Below are positions 1 through 8,001 of a DNA stretch of 64,000 nucleotides, one piece after another (the stretch's first letter is position 1; every line of letters begins with the position of its first letter). The stretch is from an uncultured cyanobacterium (GTDB lineage Bacteria; Cyanobacteriota; Cyanobacteriia; Cyanobacteriales; Cyanobacteriaceae): contig CAVQBA010000006.1 of NCBI GenBank assembly GCA_963710605.1, forward strand, positions 256,001 to 320,000. The letters are read 5' to 3'. Made by a program: the position numbers and the translations under genes. Under the pieces are notes generated by a model, which saw only the letters and a list, made by a program, of their open reading frames with translations, did no database searches and had not been told where the DNA came from.

Positions 1-1
1 A

Positions 2-478
2 AGTAAAAGATTAAGCGATGAATTTAACCATCGTGGCGAAATCAGAAATAAATATCCCGATTTGATTATTATGTCCATAGGCGTTAACGATACACCCCGT
101 TTAGGACATTTACAAGGAAGAAACCTCACCGATTATCAAGAATTTACTCGACAAATTAATAACTTACTAAATCAAGCACAAAAACTAGCACCAGTTTTAT
201 TTATCGGCATGATACCAGTAGATGAGACTAAAATGCCATTTCTTGATTGTATGTATTTTAATCGTCGAGATCAATATCATTACAAAGAAGTTACTAAAAA
301 TGCTTGTCAAGTTCTAGATATTCCTTATTTGGATATATTTGATTTATGGATGAGTCGAGGCGAAAACTGGTACAAATCGCAAATATCTGCCGATGGATTG
401 CACCCAAATGCTGAAGGATATGCTAATTTATACCAAGAGATTAGTAATTGGCAGTTTCTGCGTAAAATTATTGATTAA
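2..478 (+). CDS. SGNH/GDSL-family lipase/esterase, 5' end outside window
   Basis: Frame is open from position 2; GVND block III and DGLHPN catalytic motif. Confidence 0.85.
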   Translation, partial: SKRLSDEFNHRGEIRNKYPDLIIMSIGVNDTPRLGHLQGRNLTDYQEFTRQINNLLNQAQKLAPVLFIGMIPVDETKMPFLDCMYFNRRDQYHYKEVTKNACQVLDIPYLDIFDLWMSRGENWYKSQISADGLHPNAEGYANLYQEISNWQFLRKIID

Positions 479-589
479 TTGCTTAAAAAACAAGCACAAT
501 TAAAATAACTATGATACTATCTGAAATTAAGTTAAGTAAAAATAGGTAAAGAATCTTAAAATAATTGTGTAGGGGAATATTCACTATTT

Positions 590-1666
590 ATGAAAAATCA
601 AAGATTATCCGCAGATAATTTACCCATGAACAAAAATTATAATCGCCCCCTCAAAATAGGTGTTATTGGGGTAGGTAATATGGGACAACATCATACCAGA
701 GTTTTGAGCTTACTCAAAGACGTTGAGTTAGTAGGAATTGCTGACGTTAACGTCGAAAGAGGTTTGGATTTAGCTGGTAAGTATAGAGTTCGTTTTTTTG
801 AAAATTACCAAGAATTATTACCTCATGTAGAAGCAGTTTGTATTGCCGCCCCAACTAAACTGCATCATCAATTAGGTTTAGAATGTCTTAACGCTGGCGT
901 ACATATTTTAATCGAAAAACCAATTGCCGCTAGTATAGCTGAAGCCGAATCTTTAGTTAACGCCGCCGCTACTGCTAATTGTATTTTACAAGTCGGACAT
1001 ATCGAACGTTTTAATCCAGCTTTCCAAGAATTGAGTAAGGTATTAAAAACAGAAGATATACTTGCACTTGAAGCCCACAGAATGAGCCCCTACTCTAATC
1101 GTGCTAATGATGTTTCTGTGGTTTTAGATTTAATGATTCATGATTTAGATTTACTTTTAGAAGTAGCTAATTCTTATGTAGTCAAAGTTAATGCTACAGG
1201 TAGCCGTTTAGCAAATTCTCAACATCTAGATTATGTTACTGCTACTCTTAATTTTGCTAATGGTATCGTTGCCACTGTCACGGCAAGTAAAGTAACTCAT
1301 CGTAAAATTCGTGGTTTAGCCGCCCATTGTCAAAATAGCCTAACTGAGGCAGATTTCCTTAACAATGAAATTTTAATTCATCGTCATACTACTGCTAATT
1401 ATACTACCGACTATGGACAAATTTGTTATCGTCAAGATGGTTTAATTGAAAAGGTTTACACCAGTAATATTGAACCTTTACACGCTGAATTAGAACATTT
1501 TGTTAGTTGTGTTAGAGGTGGTAATCAACCTTCTGTTGGTGGCGAACAAGCCTTAAAAGCCTTACGTTTAGCTAGTTGTATCGAAAAGTTGGCTTTAGAT
1601 GGTAAAGTGTGGGAAGATTCTTCGATTGATTTACATCAATTAAACGGACACATTGTCAGCATCTAA
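590..1666 (+). CDS. Gfo/Idh/MocA family oxidoreductase
   Basis: GVIGVGNMG Rossmann motif, EKPIA, GHIERFNP, DLMIHD. Confidence 0.92.
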   Translation: MKNQRLSADNLPMNKNYNRPLKIGVIGVGNMGQHHTRVLSLLKDVELVGIADVNVERGLDLAGKYRVRFFENYQELLPHVEAVCIAAPTKLHHQLGLECLNAGVHILIEKPIAASIAEAESLVNAAATANCILQVGHIERFNPAFQELSKVLKTEDILALEAHRMSPYSNRANDVSVVLDLMIHDLDLLLEVANSYVVKVNATGSRLANSQHLDYVTATLNFANGIVATVTASKVTHRKIRGLAAHCQNSLTEADFLNNEILIHRHTTANYTTDYGQICYRQDGLIEKVYTSNIEPLHAELEHFVSCVRGGNQPSVGGEQALKALRLASCIEKLALDGKVWEDSSIDLHQLNGHIVSI

Positions 1667-1667
1667 C

Positions 1668-1724
1668 AGTTAAGAGTTAAGAGTTAAGAGTTAAAAGTTA
1701 AAACCTATAAGCTATAAGCTAAGA
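1668..1724. repeat. Short tandem heptamer repeats (GTTAAGA)n, STRR-like
   Basis: GTTAAGA tandem copies directly after the stop codon, decaying into TAAGCTA units. Confidence 0.85.
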
Positions 1725-1850
1725 GTTATTTATTGTCAATTCTCAATTGTCAATTATTATACATACCATAGTGTTCGTAACGATAATTAACTACTTATTA
1801 CTTATTAGACTTCTTTCATAATTAACAATTAAAGTTAGAAGATAAAAATT

Positions 1851-2129
1851 ATGGAATTAATTACAGGTGAAGAGTTAATTGACTTTGCCACAACTATCAA
1901 ATCAAAATCAGATTTTGAGTATTTTCTTCTATGTTTTGTCGAAGACTATAAAAAAAATCAAAATGAATGGGAGAATAAAAATTTGCTGAGTTATTTGGAA
2001 GGGATGAGATATTTTGTTCCGAGTATGGCTAACTACTATAAAAATATGAATGAAGAGGTTGATGTCGAACATGCAAGTTGGCGTATTGTTGCTGAAGTAT
2101 TAATTGCGGCAACTATTTATGGTAATTAA
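1851..2129 (+). CDS. Small acidic protein resembling DUF7660 / putative immunity-type proteins
   Basis: WEN..L..YLEGM...Y.N...ASW..VAEVL.AA.IY pattern, recognised from memory. Confidence 0.6.
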   Translation: MELITGEELIDFATTIKSKSDFEYFLLCFVEDYKKNQNEWENKNLLSYLEGMRYFVPSMANYYKNMNEEVDVEHASWRIVAEVLIAATIYGN

Positions 2130-2311
2130 ATACGATCGTATCTGTTATCTAGTATGTCAACGGAAAATTAACTAAAGTAGGATTGTTATTTTGTAGTATG
2201 ATAGTCGATCTTATTGGGTGTGTTTTTTAAAATCATTACATATTTAAGATCGTCTTATACAGCATAGAACGCATCACCCTTGCTGTTAAGTACGAATGAT
2301 TTACACTGTGG

Positions 2312-2481
2312 TCGATCGAGATAATATTTGCGTTGGGTTTATCCTCCAAGTCAGAACCTGTTGATAGTGGCTTATGCTAATTATCCTGTTGGTCAGTCTT
2401 TTATTTGGTAGGTGATGTCGATGTCTGTTTGGAGTAGAAGGGTTGACCAGATGTGGTTTACGCTATTATTGAGTTGATTAT
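2312..2481 (-). pseudogene. Repeat B copy 1: decayed fragment of a large protein gene
   Basis: Minus strand reads NQLNNSVNHIWSTLLLQTDIDITYQIKD*PTG*LA*ATI..., homologous to 2641-2800 and 3550-3720. Confidence 0.75.
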
Positions 2482-2508
2482 TGGAAAGATACTCCTTGAT
2501 GGTGATGC

Positions 2509-2640
2509 AAGTACGATCGACATCTCGTAGGTTGGGTTAAGCCTCGAAAAGATTAATATACATTCGATACATAAAATAAAAGCCAAACCCAATAACCGTC
2601 GCCTTAATAAAACTAGAAATAGCGATCGTAACCTAACCCT
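2509..2640 (+). repeat. Repeat A copy 1, containing a REP-like GTAGGTTGGGTT...AAACCCAA element
   Basis: Near-identical to 3417-3549 and 4126-4246; begins AAGTACGATCGACATC. Confidence 0.9.
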
Positions 2641-2800
2641 CGATCGATCGAGACAATTTCTACCTTGGGTTTACCTTCCGAATCGAAATCTGTAATGATG
2701 GCTTCTGCTAGTTGTCCAGAAGGTAAGTCTTTTATTTGATAGGTTATCGATGTTTGTTTGAGGTAGAAAAGTTGACCAGATTTGGTTTACGCTATTATTT
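2641..2800 (-). pseudogene. Repeat B copy 2: fragment of a large protein gene
   Basis: Minus strand reads NNSVNQIWSTFLPQTNID (frameshift) TYQIKDLPSGQLAEAIITDFDSEGKPKVEIVSIDR. Confidence 0.8.
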
Positions 2801-2847
2801 TATCGATCGAGTGTTTGTAGATTTGAATTAGATATTGAAGGAGAAAT

Positions 2848-3372
2848 TTGATGACCAGTATTATTATTGATCCCATTGAGCATAAACGTAGAATGGATAC
2901 TTGGAGTTATATTGACAGAATTTGGGACAGAAGCGATATCGCTCAAGAAGAAATTGTTAATATTTTTGATCAGTTCTTTGCTCCCACTATTACTGTTCGG
3001 GAATTGCGGGAATATTATGCCAGAGGAGAAAGAGAATTCATTGACATCAGTTTGCCCCATAAAGCTAATTTGACGGGAATCAATTTGGCTGGTGCGAATT
3101 TGATTGGTGCCAAGTTTAATCACTCCAATCTGACTGGGGCTAATTTGAACGGGGCTAATTTGAGATATGCTTGGATTAATGGAGTTAACTTCACTGAAGC
3201 TAATTTGGAAGGTGTTGATATTTCCTGGGCTGATGCTACTGGAGCTATTTTAAAAAATGCTAGTTTGCTCAATGCGATTGGACAATTTGGTATTAATTGT
3301 GATGCTCTTTATGAAAATACTATCAGACCTAATGGAAGCATTATCAAAGGACCCTATCGCCCTTTCGGATAA
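2848..3372 (+). CDS. Pentapeptide repeat protein (start may be ATG 2851)
   Basis: YARGEREF leader followed by ANLTG/INLAG/ANLIG/ANLNG repeats; GAAGGAG RBS upstream. Confidence 0.9.
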   Translation: MMTSIIIDPIEHKRRMDTWSYIDRIWDRSDIAQEEIVNIFDQFFAPTITVRELREYYARGEREFIDISLPHKANLTGINLAGANLIGAKFNHSNLTGANLNGANLRYAWINGVNFTEANLEGVDISWADATGAILKNASLLNAIGQFGINCDALYENTIRPNGSIIKGPYRPFG

Positions 3373-3416
3373 TTCTAATAAGTTATTATTCGCTAATAAA
3401 AAAACTGGTAGCCTAT

Positions 3417-3549
3417 AAGTACGATCGACATCTCGTAGAAAAAGGTGAAGCCCCGAAAAGATTAATATACATTCGATACATAAAATAAAAGCCAAACCCA
3501 ACAACCGTCACCTCAGTTAAACTAGAAATAGCGATCGTAACCTAACCCT
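3417..3549 (+). repeat. Repeat A copy 2
   Basis: Direct repeat of 2509-2640. Confidence 0.9.
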
Positions 3550-3720
3550 CGATCGAGACAATTCCTACCTTGGGTTTATTTTGAGAGTCAAAACCTGTGA
3601 TAGTGACTTGTACTAATTGCCCTATTGGTAAGTCTTTTATTTCATCGATTATCGATGTTTGTTTGAGGTAGGAGAGTTAACCAGATTTGATTTACGCTAT
3701 TATTTAGTTGATTAATTATT
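3550..3720 (-). pseudogene. Repeat B copy 3: fragment of a large protein gene
   Basis: Minus strand reads QIINQLNNSVNQIWLTLLPQTNID... then IKDLPIGQLVQVTITGFDSQNKPK; first part is in frame with antisense ORF 3642-4199. Confidence 0.8.
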
Positions 3721-3734
3721 TGAGGATTTGAACT

Positions 3735-4115
3735 ATGACTATGGAAGGTGGAGAATTGATCGCTCGTTATGGGGCGGGAGAAAGAGACTTTGCTGGAGTC
3801 GATTTGAGTGATGCCGATTTGCAAGATGTTCATTTGGATGGGATCAATTTGGAAGGGGCTATCTTGGATGGGGCTAATATGTGTTTTAGCACTTTTTCTC
3901 ATGCTAACTTCAAAAATGCCAGTATGGAAGAAATTGTTGCTCAAGAAACTTTCTTTGGAGATGCCACTTTTGAAAATGCTAATCTCAGAAATGCTATTAT
4001 TGCTGAATGTTGTATTGATAGAGCTAGTTTCAAAGGAGCTAATATTGAAGGTGTCGATGATAGCCTTTTCTACGGGGAGTATATATGGAGCGATGGAAAA
4101 GTCATTAGTGAGTGA
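3735..4115 (+). CDS. Pentapeptide repeat protein
   Basis: ELIARYGAGERDF leader followed by VDLSD/ADLQD/INLEG/ANLRN repeats; GAGGA RBS. Confidence 0.9.
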   Translation: MTMEGGELIARYGAGERDFAGVDLSDADLQDVHLDGINLEGAILDGANMCFSTFSHANFKNASMEEIVAQETFFGDATFENANLRNAIIAECCIDRASFKGANIEGVDDSLFYGEYIWSDGKVISE

Positions 4116-4125
4116 GTAATCTTCA

Positions 4126-4246
4126 AAGTACGATCGACATCTTGTAGGTTGGGTTAAAGCCTCGAAAAGCTCAATATAAATTCGATACATAAAATACAAG
4201 CGAAAGCTAACAACAGTCGCCTCAGTAAAACTAGAAATAGCGATCG
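4126..4246 (+). repeat. Repeat A copy 3
   Basis: Direct repeat of 2509-2628, ending at GCGATCG. Confidence 0.88.
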
Positions 4247-4278
4247 ATCCCCCTAAATCCCCCTTAGAAAGGGGGACT
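4243..4278. repeat. 36-bp REP-like repeat, exact inverted partner of 5516-5551
   Basis: ATCGATCCCCCTAAATCCCCCTTAGAAAGGGGGACT. Confidence 0.9.
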
Positions 4279-4327
4279 CGATCTATTTATGTATCGCTTT
4301 TATAGATTGAATTGGTCTTCTTACTTA

Positions 4328-5455
4328 TTACTCCCACAATCGCCGACGAGACGAACCATTATAGCGGTGATGGCTATCATACAATAACTGCGGTATATCT
4401 AAAGATTCGGGGCATTTAGGTAAACATTCGCCACATTCGGTACATTTGTTTCCTTTTTGTCCCCAAAACCAATGCCCTGCATTTTCAAACATTTGATAAC
4501 GATATTTAGCGTATTCTGTCATCTCCAAACCAACACCAAGATTACGCAGACGTAATATTTCAGATATATTGATATTTTCAGGGCAAGGTAAACATAGATG
4601 ACATTGACTACATCGATCGGTTTGTAAAATCTCGCTCAATGCGGTTTCAATTTTAGCAAAAGTTTGTTGTTCTTCAAAAGTTAACGATCGATCGTCTTCG
4701 GCGACTGATAATGGTACGATAAACTGTTCTGGATTACTTGCCCCTAAACTCAATGTGGTAATACGTCGATCGTTAAGTAAAAAACGGTAATTCAAATACA
4801 TCGGTGTAAAAGGCTGACAAAGACTACTCAATTTAGTTGAAGGTTGATGTAACAACCCTCCTTTGTCTACAGGAGAAATAATAAATACACCCATATCTTT
4901 CTCTTGGGCTAATGTTAAAGCAGGGCTATTTCTTTGCCAAAAATAATAGTAGTGTAAATTAACAAACGAAAATAGATTTGTTTCGATCGTCTTGCTAATT
5001 AAATCTAAATTACCATGAGTAGAAAAACCAATATGTTTAATTTTTCCTAATTGTTGTGCTTTTTTTAAAACATCTAAGCAACTGTTTTTTTGCGTAACAA
5101 TTTCTAAATGTTGTGGCGTATTAATTCCGTGAATAGCAACACAATCAAGATAATCTACTTGTAAATTAGCTAAAGATTCATCTAACCATTTTTGCATTAT
5201 TTGAGCAGAATCAACAGGAGTAAATTTAGTCGTAATAACAATTTTTTCACGAGGAATATTTAACTGTTTTAAAGCCTTACCCAAATATTGTTCACTTTCA
5301 CCGTAAGCCTTTGCAGTTTCTATATGATTGATACCTAATTCTAATGCTTCATTAACGGTGTCTAACAATTGATTATAATTATCACAACAACGCATCAAAC
5401 CAAGAGAGAAAACCGACATTTTTAATTCTGTCTTACCAAAACGACGATATAGCAT
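4328..5455 (-). CDS. Aldo/keto reductase with C-terminal 4Fe-4S dicluster domain
   Basis: MLYRRFGKT start, GINHIETA..YG.SE, HIGFSTHG, CSQCHLCLPCP and CTECGECLPKCP. Confidence 0.92.
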   Translation of the reverse strand: MLYRRFGKTELKMSVFSLGLMRCCDNYNQLLDTVNEALELGINHIETAKAYGESEQYLGKALKQLNIPREKIVITTKFTPVDSAQIMQKWLDESLANLQVDYLDCVAIHGINTPQHLEIVTQKNSCLDVLKKAQQLGKIKHIGFSTHGNLDLISKTIETNLFSFVNLHYYYFWQRNSPALTLAQEKDMGVFIISPVDKGGLLHQPSTKLSSLCQPFTPMYLNYRFLLNDRRITTLSLGASNPEQFIVPLSVAEDDRSLTFEEQQTFAKIETALSEILQTDRCSQCHLCLPCPENINISEILRLRNLGVGLEMTEYAKYRYQMFENAGHWFWGQKGNKCTECGECLPKCPESLDIPQLLYDSHHRYNGSSRRRLWE

Positions 5456-5515
5456 TGCATAGTTAATAGTTGATATAGCGTTTCCTACATTTATGAGGTA
5501 TAGTTTATATTTGCA

Positions 5516-5551
5516 AGTCCCCCTTTCTAAGGGGGATTTAGGGGGATCGAT
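5516..5551. repeat. 36-bp REP-like repeat, inverted copy of 4243-4278
   Basis: AGTCCCCCTTTCTAAGGGGGATTTAGGGGGATCGAT. Confidence 0.9.
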
Positions 5552-5580
5552 ATGTGATTCATAATACTAATAATTGCTAT

Positions 5581-5850
5581 CTATAAAACGATCGTCTCTT
5601 GTCAAATGTGCTAAGTAATTAATTATTCATTCTAAGGGTTAGTTGTTGGGTTTCGTTTTTATTTTATTTGTAGTTTAGATCTTAAGCCTTTAGAGACTCA
5701 ACCCAACCTACAACTATAAAACGATCGTCTCTTGTCAAATGAGCTAAGTAATTAATTATTCATTTTAAGGGTTAGTTGTTGGGTTTCGTTTTTATTTTAT
5801 CTCTAGTTTAGATCTTAAGCCCTTGGAGGCTCAACCCAACCTACAACTAT
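5581..5850 (-). repeat. Tandem duplication of a 133-bp unit carrying the GTAGGTTGGGTTGAG...GAAACCCAAC REP-like element
   Basis: Units start at 5581 and 5714 with CTATAAAACGATCGTCTCTTGTCAAATG; the element is related to repeat A but on the opposite strand. Confidence 0.9.
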
Positions 5851-5863
5851 TCCTCTTTTGTTA

Positions 5864-5952
5864 CTCCCCTCTCCTGCGAGGAGCGGTCAGACCCCGCGTC
5901 GGCGTAGGACGCAAGGGAACGCTGACCAAGACAGAGGGGTTGGGGGTGAGGT
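5864..5952. repeat. GC-rich nested-hairpin dispersed repeat
   Basis: Outer arms CCCCTCT...AGAGGGG(TTGGGGGTGAGG); inner stems CTCCT/AGGAG, GGTCAG/CTGACC, GCGTC/GACGC. Confidence 0.7.
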
Positions 5953-5994
5953 AAAATCAAAATAAGGCTGGTACTTTTTTTCATGGAAATGTCT

Positions 5995-6774
5995 TTAATT
6001 ATCAATGACTAACTGCTGTTTAGAATTAAAAAATTTACGATAAACGCCTTCAGTAATAATTAAAGTAGTCATCAAATTAGATAAAGCAACCATAAACAAA
6101 ATTAAAATTTGATATGAAGCCGCTGATAAAGGATCGTTTCCTGCTAATACTTGCCCTGTAAACATCCCTGGTAAACTCACCATCCCAACTATCATCATCG
6201 TATTTAACGTGGGAATTAAAGCGACTTTAACTGCTCCAATACGGTATTTTTCGATCGCTTGTTTGTCTGTTGCCCCCAAACATAAATGGGTTTCAATCTC
6301 CAGACGATTATGTTTAATTGAGGTAGCAAGTCTTTCTCCTGATAAAGATGCACCATTAAGGGTGTTACCAAGTATCATACCGACTAAAGGGATAAGATAC
6401 TGAGGATTGTACCATCGATCGGGTTGAATAATAAAAATTATGCCATAACCCACAATTAATGAGGAGGTGAAAAATAATGCTCCCCAGACTATGGGTAATA
6501 AACCTGCCATCTTTTTCGCAATTCGATTTTTAGCCACGATCGCCGCAATTGTGATCATCACTGATACAATTGAAATTACCGCAACAGGATTATCGATCGC
6601 AAAAATAAATTCTAAGACATAACCGATAAACATTAGCTGAATCAAAGAGCGAATACCAGCTATTAAAAATTGACCTTCTAGCCCTAGTTTTTGCCACCTA
6701 GATAAAGCGATCGCAATTACAATCAGCCCCCCAGTCCAAAACAAATCAAGAAAGTCTAATTCGATAATTTCCAT
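5995..6774 (-). CDS. fetB: Iron-export ABC transporter permease, FetB/UPF0014 family
   Basis: R..IQL..IGYVL, P.YLIP..GMILGN, G.VSLPGMFTGQVLAG.DP..A..YQ. Confidence 0.85.
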   Translation of the reverse strand: MEIIELDFLDLFWTGGLIVIAIALSRWQKLGLEGQFLIAGIRSLIQLMFIGYVLEFIFAIDNPVAVISIVSVMITIAAIVAKNRIAKKMAGLLPIVWGALFFTSSLIVGYGIIFIIQPDRWYNPQYLIPLVGMILGNTLNGASLSGERLATSIKHNRLEIETHLCLGATDKQAIEKYRIGAVKVALIPTLNTMMIVGMVSLPGMFTGQVLAGNDPLSAASYQILILFMVALSNLMTTLIITEGVYRKFFNSKQQLVIDN

Positions 6775-6874
6775 CTTTTTAGAATTTAGAAGTCATAATT
6801 CAGGTGTTAGCCGTTAGCTCTTAACTTTTATCATTAATTAAAATAAAAATGAGACAATTTGAGAATTATTTCTT

Positions 6875-6979
6875 TTAGTTTAATTTATTAAACGGATTCT
6901 ATTAGCCTTGGCAATTTATTGCAAGGCGGGTTCGGGTTTCATATTTATACTGTCTCAAACTTAATTTAAACAACTATAA
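6875..6979. repeat. Dispersed repeat shared with 23131-23246
   Basis: GCCTTG.CAATT.ATTGCAAGGC hairpin plus TATACTGTCTCAAACTTAATTTAAACAACTATAA. Confidence 0.8.
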
Positions 6980-7020
6980 CTGTTTAACTTTTTACAAATT
7001 ACTTCCTCTTTCATCCTTGA

Positions 7021-7359
7021 CTAAGAATCGATCGAAAAAGAAAGACCACAGGTACAATGGTGAGTAATATCAGGGTTTTTAAATTGGAATGCACCCCCCA
7101 TCAAATCTTCTAAATAATCGATCGTCAAATTTTGGATTTGTTCATGACTTACTCGATCGGTAATAATTACAATACCCGAATCGTGAGTAAACTGTAAATT
7201 TTGCTGATCAGATTCAGCCATAAAATCTAACTGATAAATAAACTCCAAACAACCTCCCTCACTAACTTTGATTCGTAGATACTTAGAATCAGAATCAGAA
7301 TCTTGGTGATTTTTTAATCTCTCTAATTCAGCGATCGCTCTTGTTGTTAAATTAACCAT
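7021..7359 (-). CDS. HesB/IscA family Fe-S cluster assembly accessory protein
   Basis: GGC, EDLMGGAFQF.NP, CTCG.SF. Confidence 0.88.
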   Translation of the reverse strand: MVNLTTRAIAELERLKNHQDSDSDSKYLRIKVSEGGCLEFIYQLDFMAESDQQNLQFTHDSGIVIITDRVSHEQIQNLTIDYLEDLMGGAFQFKNPDITHHCTCGLSFSIDS

Positions 7360-7620
7360 AGGTAATTTAATTAATAATTAATAATTAATAATTAATAATT
7401 TTTTAATCTGTTATTATTTCAATTTGAGAAAATATTATCTCATAAATAATTGTCATTAGGGTATGAGAGAAAAAGAAAACACAAAGTTTTTATACTTATA
7501 AGTTCAAAAAACAACAAACAATGTTTAGTTTTGAAACTTGAATACTAGACACAGATATCAATATGTTTAGTGGGAAAAAATTCATTCTCCATTCTCCATT
7601 CTCCATTCTCCATTAATTAC

Positions 7621-8001
7621 CTATCCACGGGAATAATCATCTTGAAAACGGATAATGTCATCTTCGCCTAGATATTCGCCATTCTGGACTTCAATTAAAA
7701 CTAACTTGATTACCCCTGGATTTTCTAAACGATGAGCAGTACACTGAGGCACATAAGTAGATTCATTCGCACCTAAAATTGTTTCTTTATCACCACAAGT
7801 TACCTTAGCTGTACCTGATACGACAATCCAATGTTCGCTACGGTGGTGGTGCATTTGTAAACTTAATCGGTGTCCAGGTTGAACTTCAATTCGTTTGATT
7901 TTGTAACCTGTACCTTCTTCTAAAGTGGTAAAGCTACCCCAAGGACGAGTTTCAGACATATTTGCTTGATTAACAGGAGTTTGAGTAATAGACATAGACA
8001 T
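7621..8001 (-). CDS. Cupin protein, mannose-6-phosphate isomerase type II C-terminal-like
   Basis: RPWG, LSLQMHHHRSEHW, EVQNGEYLGEDDIIRFQDDY; start codon uncertain (7995-8007). Confidence 0.88.
   Translation of the reverse strand: MSMSITQTPVNQANMSETRPWGSFTTLEEGTGYKIKRIEVQPGHRLSLQMHHHRSEHWIVVSGTAKVTCGDKETILGANESTYVPQCTAHRLENPGVIKLVLIEVQNGEYLGEDDIIRFQDDYSRG

Follow-up and report, generated by a model that had tools for sequence, protein, structure and literature searches.

Tandem pentapeptide-repeat genes of an uncultured cyanobacterium as probable orphans of a gene nested antisense within nuclease genes

Pentapeptide-repeat proteins (PRPs) are generally reputed to be DNA mimics, and the DNA-mimicking members MfpA, Qnr and AlbG target gyrase. 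The present study concerns a tandem array of small PRP genes, flanked by two repeats (B upstream, A downstream), in a stretch of 64,000 nucleotides from an uncultured cyanobacterium (GenBank assembly GCA_963710605.1, contig CAVQBA010000006.1; hereafter the window, C6:256001-320000). Orphan modules of polymorphic toxins of the contact-dependent inhibition (CDI) and Rhs types (Zhang et al. 2012, PMC3482391) are among the closest described systems. NucA/NuiA of Anabaena and EndoG/EndoGI are non-specific beta-beta-alpha-Me nucleases with dedicated protein inhibitors (PMC2790893). In E. coli O157:H7 an embedded antisense overlapping gene, pop, is located inside ompA (PMC7103648). Two papers (PMC7103648, PMC8665328) describe long protein-coding overlaps between the two strands as a great rarity in bacteria, and as discarded by annotation pipelines. 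In the searched literature, available in part, neither antisense-nested PRP genes nor a nuclease-inhibiting role of PRPs was covered, nor was DUF7660, the family of an open reading frame (ORF) next to the array.

The array is best explained as three tandem decayed copies of a dual-coding module, in which the PRP genes are orphans that outlived their host gene; we put the probability of this reading at roughly 80%. The genome searched was an assembly of 3.93 Mb in 7 contigs with a completeness of 84.9%. Three tandem units of the type B-cargo-A, already seen in a first-pass annotation of the window, were recovered by a repeat search of positions 1500-4800 and by nhmmer searches of the whole genome. 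They span 2312-4250 in the order B1-A1, B2-gene-A2, B3-gene-A3, with the following features:

2313-2481, minus strand: B1, decayed first ~55 codons of an HExxH (metzincin-like) domain (nhmmer E 6e-45)
2505-2643, plus strand: A1, a 74-nt dispersed core at 2523-2592 with locally shared tails
2645-2827, minus strand: B2, relic of the HExxH-domain N-terminus
2851 (ATG) to 3372 (stop), plus strand: PRP2, intact pentapeptide-repeat gene of 173 amino acids
3413-3552, plus strand: A2, core at 3431-3503
3550-3732, minus strand: B3, relic of the HExxH-domain N-terminus with a frameshift
3735-4115, plus strand: PRP3, intact acidic pentapeptide-repeat gene of 126 amino acids
3642-4199, minus strand: antisense open frame of 185 codons, from A3 across the entire PRP3 into B3
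4122-4250, plus strand: A3, core at 4139-4212

PRP genes are present in units 2 and 3, and in unit 1 B1 and A1 are separated by merely ~15-25 nt without a gene. The translation of B1 matched the HExxH domain with 74% identity and 4 stops (tblastn-type match). The C-terminal end of the 185-codon antisense frame, NQLNNSVNQIWLTLLPQTNIDNR, matches the start of the HExxH domain. This frame is probably a fossil of the linker reading frame of the former host gene.

The three B copies of the window were mutually 76-82% identical (gap-free segment identities), with blastn E-values of 1e-31 to 1e-43. In the genome 23 copies of B were detected with nhmmer, and a small PRP gene was located directly downstream of 20 of them. 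Twelve copies had the arrangement B-PRP-A and eight B-PRP without A; two were geneless B-A units (unit 1 of the array and C4:387972-388213) and one was B alone. Besides the array, two further tandem loci exist in the genome. For six copies elsewhere in the genome the similarity extends upstream of B. The minus strand at these extended copies reads ...NQLNNSVNHIWSTLLPQTNIDITYEIKDLPSGQLAEATITGFD...LLTTILHEAAHLYGF, within ORFs of 460 and 788 amino acids, and the protein continues beyond NQLNNSVNHIWSTLLPQTNIDITYEIKDLPSGQLAEATITGFD with ...LLTTILHE(A/T)AHLYGF, an HExxH motif. Repeat B is thus coding DNA of the minus strand and corresponds to the N-terminal ~60 codons of a metzincin-like HExxH domain.

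The predicted fold of the HExxH domain had a predicted local distance difference test score (pLDDT) of ~90 over residues 1-185. The best structural match of the model (Foldseek) was leishmanolysin with E 1.5e-4 and a template modelling (TM) score of 0.38, followed by catalytic domains of matrix metalloproteinases with E 0.04 or weaker. H455, E456 and H459 were invariant in 44 sequences. With its motif and its matrixin/leishmanolysin-like predicted fold the domain can be classed as metzincin-like, a putative zinc metalloprotease. Pfam contained no family over the HExxH region, the sequence search of the PDB gave no match, and NCBIfam gave a metalloprotease match below the threshold only.

Among three B copies still within long ORFs, the differences at minus-frame codon positions 1/2/3 were 24/2/62. 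The copies of the window differed at these positions as follows:

B2 versus B3: 11/13/12
B2 versus B1: 10/10/16
B3 versus B1: 9/11/13

All three window copies bear stops or frameshifts. Because of these and of the flat distribution of differences over the codon positions, they are regarded as dead relics. B is conserved because it once encoded part of a conserved domain on the opposite strand, and not because of a role in recombination. This genome was found to contain a single long HExxH gene (788 amino acids), a few broken ones and many B-only relics; the ORFs of broken HExxH genes elsewhere in the genome contain 'PSPSEGEG'-like peptide stretches. We also rejected the notion that B consistently surpasses the cargo in conservation: in a set of 17 pairs selected for PRP similarity, the initial HExxH codons (60 at most) had diverged less than the PRP in only 9. 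The mean identity over the 325 pairs of 26 intact loci was 0.62 for the HExxH domain versus 0.42 for the PRP.

The complete form of the module was found in other genomes. The HExxH domain has 131 relatives in the databases, mostly cyanobacterial, and many of them carry PF01223 (Endonuclease_NS) upstream and PKD, Big_9 or cadherin-like domains downstream. Their linkers bear the signature 'TSQIS...SSIxSQQFFS' of an antisense PRP, and the same fused architecture is present in independently called database proteins. A scan of species-representative genomes identified 79 loci, among others in Waterburya, Xenococcus, Myxosarcina, Crocosphaera, Nostoc, Calothrix, Tolypothrix, Chamaesiphon, Anabaena and Prochloron. 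The N-terminus of the HExxH domain was contained in 77 ORFs, 66 of them with a PRP frame on the opposite strand ending at most 150 nt from the domain start. These nested PRPs were codon-aligned with the big ORF in 64 of the 66 cases, 62 had no antisense stop, and the big ORF was open across the entire PRP in 59 loci. The loci of Lentisphaerae and Pirellulaceae, the only two non-cyanobacterial ones with the domain start, had no antisense PRP.

In all 28 upstream segments tested PF01223 was detected, mostly ending shortly before the 3' end of the PRP, and in all 28 loci the big ORF was continuous from the nuclease to the HExxH domain. The G-H of the nuclease motif was invariant. The complete architecture, belonging to giant cyanobacterial exoprotein genes, consists of Endonuclease_NS, a linker of 150-300 residues, the HExxH domain and immunoglobulin (Ig)-like repeats in one ORF. 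The PRP is located entirely inside the linker on the opposite strand; its ATG lies within a few nucleotides of where the HExxH domain begins, and the overlap measures 330-950 nt. In the minus frame the ATG is read as His (CAT), and the frame stays open across the PRP. Many nested PRP sequences have GAGG or GGAG 5' of the ATG (uncounted), and some of the nested ORFs are annotated by NCBI as pentapeptide repeat-containing proteins. AlphaFold2 modelled the nuclease part with pLDDT 84-97 and the linker with pLDDT 21-33 and no secondary structure, which is weak evidence of disorder since the alignment is poor there. Pfam gave no family in three antisense-containing ORFs. In Tolypothrix and Calothrix strains several intact nuclease-HExxH genes with nested PRPs (L045, L049, L051, L057) are plasmid-borne. 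Other genera have orphans, too, in which 43-200 HExxH codons are left.

Dual coding leaves a mark in codon usage, as TTA, CTA and TCA are stops when read codon-aligned on the opposite strand. The genome is AT-rich and TTA makes up 58% of its Leu codons, so the codon-aligned antisense strand of a normal gene is full of stops. The following numbers of TTA, CTA and TCA per 100 codons were determined for this genome:

1684 background ORFs: 8.5
32 other PRP ORFs (five with low-TTA bias): 9.6
19 B-linked PRPs (3135 codons): 0.45

For the B-linked PRPs, TTG accounted for 57% and TTA for 3.4% of Leu, and TCA was absent; stand-alone PRPs of this genome with similar end motifs showed normal codon use. 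PRP2 contains 1 TTA and 10 TTG codons, hence 1 antisense stop, and PRP3 has no TTA, CTA or TCA codon. In 66 nested PRPs of other genomes only 5 TTA, CTA or TCA were counted in 11,822 codons, compared with 6.15 per 100 in 183 flanking ORFs. GTA, ATA, ACA and GCA, which give Tyr or Cys on the antisense strand, were depleted in nested PRPs, whereas GAA, AAA, CAA and GGA were not. The avoidance of antisense stop, Tyr and Cys codons suggests that the linker is translated, with limits on its composition.

The PRP itself was examined in the same way. Codon position 3 was the most variable in 22 of 22 alignable pairs (743/583/1334 differences in total at positions 1/2/3), and in 17 of 17 pairs from other genomes the amino-acid identity of the PRP exceeded that of the linker frame. 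Both results indicate that the PRP is a genuine protein kept by purifying selection. The PRP frame seems to be the more constrained one, and the linker would chiefly be kept open and free of Tyr and Cys. In the nested loci both frames are open beyond what codon usage explains and selection apparently acts on both products, as expected for dual coding. In this genome 14 antisense stops were present in 19 PRPs. Elsewhere, the 27 intact-type loci had none (4,925 codons), and 5 were counted in 6,897 codons for the 39 loci whose host genes were truncated or short at the N-terminus. Continued selection on the antisense frame of the orphans was rejected, as 14 stops in 19 PRPs fit a rough estimate for neutral decay. 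The codon bias of the PRPs in this genome is therefore best described as a probable, fading fossil of past dual coding.

PRP2 and PRP3 are members of Pfam family PF00805 (E 5e-20 and 4e-16; 71.2 and 58.6 bits, cut-off 20.2), and only pentapeptide families were found for them in Pfam and NCBIfam. The two are only distantly alike, as described in the first-pass annotation. However, its description of the cargo as variable goes too far, since one family is found at 20 of 23 B copies. The cargo proteins linked to B share an N-terminal motif of the ELLRRYxAGERDF type, and many also a C-terminal motif of the TIMPDGS type; hence the cargo is one PRP subfamily. PRP2 is extended at its N-terminus, a feature shared with the nested PRPs L074 and L107 of the Chamaesiphon type. 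Shine-Dalgarno sequences are located 8 nt (GGAG) 5' of the ATG of PRP2 and 9 nt (GAGG) 5' of that of PRP3. An 80-amino-acid mini-PRP at C6:396024-396371 has kept the N- and C-terminal motifs with hardly any repeats. Together with the second 'empty' B-A unit, it seems to point to recurrent internal deletion of the repeat region.

Repeat A is a dispersed element. With nhmmer its core of 74 nt was located 70 times across the genome (39 plus-strand and 31 minus-strand copies). Its ends form an 8-bp inverted repeat (GTTGGGTT/AACCCAAC), intact in 46 of the 70 copies. A is short, multi-copy, bounded by terminal inverted repeats and present in both orientations, as are dispersed repeats of the miniature inverted-repeat transposable element (MITE) and repetitive extragenic palindrome (REP) type. 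The other window copies of D2, a 113-nt segment of A, were 94% and 76% identical to the reference copy. The regular B-gene-A order suggested in the first-pass annotation held for 12 of the 23 B copies, but not for A: 21 of its 70 copies lie near PRP modules and 49 away from PRP genes, between unrelated genes. At the DNA level no match to A or B was obtained in 19 other relatives searched, and the only match outside this genome was a weak one in the same-genus genome G001 (67% complete).

According to the preferred reading, the host gene of each unit would have been lost save for the first ~60 codons of the HExxH domain, the present repeat B with its stops and frameshifts. The PRP of unit 1 would have been deleted, those of units 2 and 3 would have stayed intact, and each unit would end in a copy of dispersed A. 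B was probably kept because it would hold the promoter and the Shine-Dalgarno region of the PRP: just 5' of the Shine-Dalgarno sequence and ATG of PRP2, the plus strand of B2 contains a promoter-like TTGACC..TATTAT. The tandem order may have been built by recombination between the many copies of A.

A function is proposed with less confidence. The PRP, likely a DNA-mimicking beta-helix, is a candidate inhibitor of the nuclease domain of the host protein, as suggested by its adjacency to this domain, its acidity and the repute of PRPs as DNA mimics. The orphans would then be immunity-type genes that outlived a toxin-type gene. PRP3 has an isoelectric point (pI) of 4.08, and the median pI was 4.7 for nested PRPs, 5.3 for other PRPs and 5.8 for background ORFs. 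A toxin-type domain with an adjacent small gene was found in 28 of 28 intact relatives and not in the window's own genome. For the L077 nuclease domain (residues 325-590) and its nested PRP a predicted complex reached a score of 0.15 (mark 0.32), which speaks neither for nor against the pairing. The antisense ORF of orphan L003 (C7:5543-6445, minus strand) starts with ...VDDIETLTGLDFFTNIPLDVQNAIERRL, which resembles the C-terminal end of Endonuclease_NS (Pfam scan negative). Judging from L003, the modules of this genome may once have been part of nuclease-bearing genes. In the fullest version of this proposal an antidote is encoded antisense within the linker of a poison gene, and the orphan arrays form a repertoire of protection against the nucleases of neighbours. 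Neither gene could then be inherited or lost alone, since the PRP is antisense, codon for codon, to the nuclease linker. We offer this version tentatively and consider it rather doubtful. If true, it would represent a phylum-wide, selection-maintained, fully nested antisense coding pair with toxin-antidote logic.

Several results speak against the interpretation given here. This genome has no nuclease-HExxH fusion: its only PF01223 match is a separate ORF of 256 amino acids, and its 788-amino-acid HExxH gene has no nuclease domain. Thus, the orphans have no partner in cis. Across 26 intact loci the similarities of PRP, nuclease and HExxH domain were barely correlated (Spearman 0.11-0.13); for PRP with nuclease and PRP with HExxH domain the values were 0.12 and 0.13 with permutation fractions of 0.13 and 0.11, all based on local alignments of repeats, which are noisy. 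The nested PRPs are just modestly more acidic than the background. The promoter-like pattern TTGAC-N15-19-TAnnnT, present in 11 of 16 B copies of this genome, was found in only 5 of 63 copies from other genomes. Finally, the A1B2 and A2B3 junctions are 84% identical over ~320 nt and the PRPs between them belong to different subfamilies. Hence, a simple tandem duplication does not explain the array, and this pattern leaves room for cassette exchange or gene conversion.

The latter point leads to the rival that survives best, a reservoir of swappable modules, as had been proposed in the first-pass annotation: B and A would serve as homology arms by which loci swap PRP cassettes among themselves or pass them into a master gene. 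The B-PRP-A order at 12 loci and tandem arrays at three loci would fit such a reservoir. In some pairs PRPs of 74-76% identity lie beside HExxH N-termini with identities of only 31-47%. The nearly uncorrelated similarities of the parts and the 84% identical A-B composites around different PRP subfamilies make modular recombination plausible. Moreover, the locus differs from that of the same-genus genome G001, from which the array is absent. In G001 the two upstream genes are present as well (82% identity to window 11-1655), but past them it has a gene that is transposase-like by its sequence and others, and no DUF7660, PRP, A or B.

Nevertheless, the flanks do not look like sites of exchange, because B is probably the relic of a coding domain and A a general dispersed repeat, 49 of whose 70 copies are unrelated to PRPs. 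The window copies of B are ~20% diverged, stop-bearing and without codon periodicity, which fits old dead DNA and not maintained arms. In agreement with the first-pass annotation, no integrase or transposase was seen among the ORFs of at least 40 amino acids in window 1-7000, and neither was another recombinase. The genome has no intact nuclease-HExxH gene as a recipient of cassettes, the cargo belongs to one family only, and no exchange event was demonstrated. The related idea of orphan cassettes of polymorphic toxins was partly borne out: the PRP adjoins a nuclease domain in relatives, which fits an orphan immunity-type reading, but the cargo is never other than one PRP subfamily. The nuclease is also not a C-terminal toxin tip; it is internal and followed by the HExxH domain and Ig-like repeats. 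Taken together, we regard a reservoir of swappable modules as unlikely.

Alternatively, the genes could be ordinary PRP paralogues with B as promoter and 5' leader and A as terminator, the antisense frames being meaningless. B reaches as far as the Shine-Dalgarno sequence and ATG, with the -35/-10-like pair inside it in the 11 copies mentioned, every orphan in this and other genomes retains at least ~40-60 codons' worth of DNA 5' of the PRP start, and A has the 8-bp inverted repeat at its ends. In contrast, no consensus fold was obtained for the 70 copies of A, whose 8 terminal pairs showed no compensatory changes, and Rfam gave no match in window 1-8000 at E up to 1. B within long ORFs varies at minus-frame third positions (24/2/62), so its conservation was at the protein level. 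In addition, the stop-free antisense rate is beyond the reach of normal codon usage, and the big ORF is unbroken from nuclease to HExxH domain in the 28 loci. Purely cis-regulatory flanks are therefore quite improbable.

A cassette array of the integron type without integrase (cluster of attC sites lacking integron-integrases, CALIN), with A as attC-type site, is highly improbable: A has terminal inverted repeats and at a few other loci separates small accessory genes with a spacing of ~800-950 nt, among them an ORF of SMI1/KNR4-like sequence appearance and small ORFs without assigned function. However, the ORFs of window 1-7000 included no integrase, and copies of A point in either direction and frequently stand alone among housekeeping genes. 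Instead of attC sites of 60-140 nt between promoterless unrelated genes, the array has a ~320-nt spacer of A and a coding relic, and the cargo is invariably a single PRP subfamily whose genes bring their own Shine-Dalgarno and promoter-like sites.

The surroundings of the array contain further features:

1851-2129, plus strand: DUF7660 ORF of 92 amino acids (Pfam PF24693, E 3.6e-23)
5644-5713, minus strand: A core in opposite orientation, beyond the reductase gene (nhmmer)
5777-5846, minus strand: second A core of this kind (nhmmer)

The first of these had been taken for an immunity-like gene heading the array. The ORF exists and a Pfam family was found for it, but no NCBIfam match was obtained, the Atlas gave DUF7660 clusters only, and nothing shows that it is an immunity gene. 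It is single-copy in the genome and therefore a neighbour of the array, not a recurrent part of the module. In G001 (locus L122, C86, ~3037-4324) the place of DUF7660 and the array, after the oxidoreductase gene, is taken by a split transposase-like ORF pair. The genes on either side of the array are ordinary metabolic ones, as originally noted: by Pfam they encode a GFO/IDH/MocA oxidoreductase and an aldo/keto reductase with a 4Fe-4S domain. The two reversed A cores lie in a 133-nt tandem duplication (5580-5712 and 5714-5845, blastn 95% identity), one in each copy. On either side of the aldo/keto reductase gene (4328-5455, minus strand), at 4243-4282 and 5516-5551, lie mutually inverted copies of a palindromic element of ~36-40 nt with G/C runs; this element (CCCCCTAAATCCCCCTTAGAAAGGGGG type) had 54 matches in the genome (blastn). 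Directly after the stop codon of the oxidoreductase gene, at 1664-1730, tandem repeats of the heptamers AGTTAAG and then AGCTATA resemble cyanobacterial short tandemly repeated sequences and had 319 genome matches (blastn-short). A GC-rich element of ~106 nt in the AT-rich intergenic region at 5850-5955 had 35 (blastn).

The results show that what look like conserved non-coding flanks can be coding relics of the other strand, and they propose a testable function for part of the large, mostly unexplained cyanobacterial family of pentapeptide-repeat proteins. Repeat A resembles small MITE/REP-like cyanobacterial repeats in its length of 74 nt, its 70 copies in both orientations, its intergenic position and its inverted repeats, but about one third of its copies travel with PRP modules. 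With MfpA, Qnr and AlbG the cargo shares the repeat family, the small size and the acidity; however, the NCBIfam scores of the window PRPs are far below the cut-offs, and the proposed target is a nuclease instead of gyrase. With NucA/NuiA and EndoG/EndoGI, as far as described in PMC2790893, it has in common the nuclease family PF01223 with the invariant active-site G-H and the need of the producer to protect its own nucleic acids; here the candidate inhibitor is a pentapeptide-repeat protein.

Compared with the orphan modules of CDI/Rhs toxins, as presented in Zhang et al. 2012 (PMC3482391), tandem small genes accompany a fragment of a large secreted-protein gene, a nuclease domain lies beside the small gene in complete relatives, and many divergent versions occur per genome. 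In contrast to those modules, the fragment is derived from a protease-like domain downstream of the nuclease and not from the C-terminal tip of a toxin, and the small gene lies antisense inside the large gene and not downstream of it; immunity and delivery are putative. As for pop in ompA (PMC7103648), a protein-coding ORF of several hundred bases is wholly embedded antisense. Here, however, both partners belong to recognisable families, the overlap is complete, and 66 loci in many genera carry a strong codon signature. For these reasons, the nested pair would be a clean natural model for two proteins sharing one stretch of DNA.

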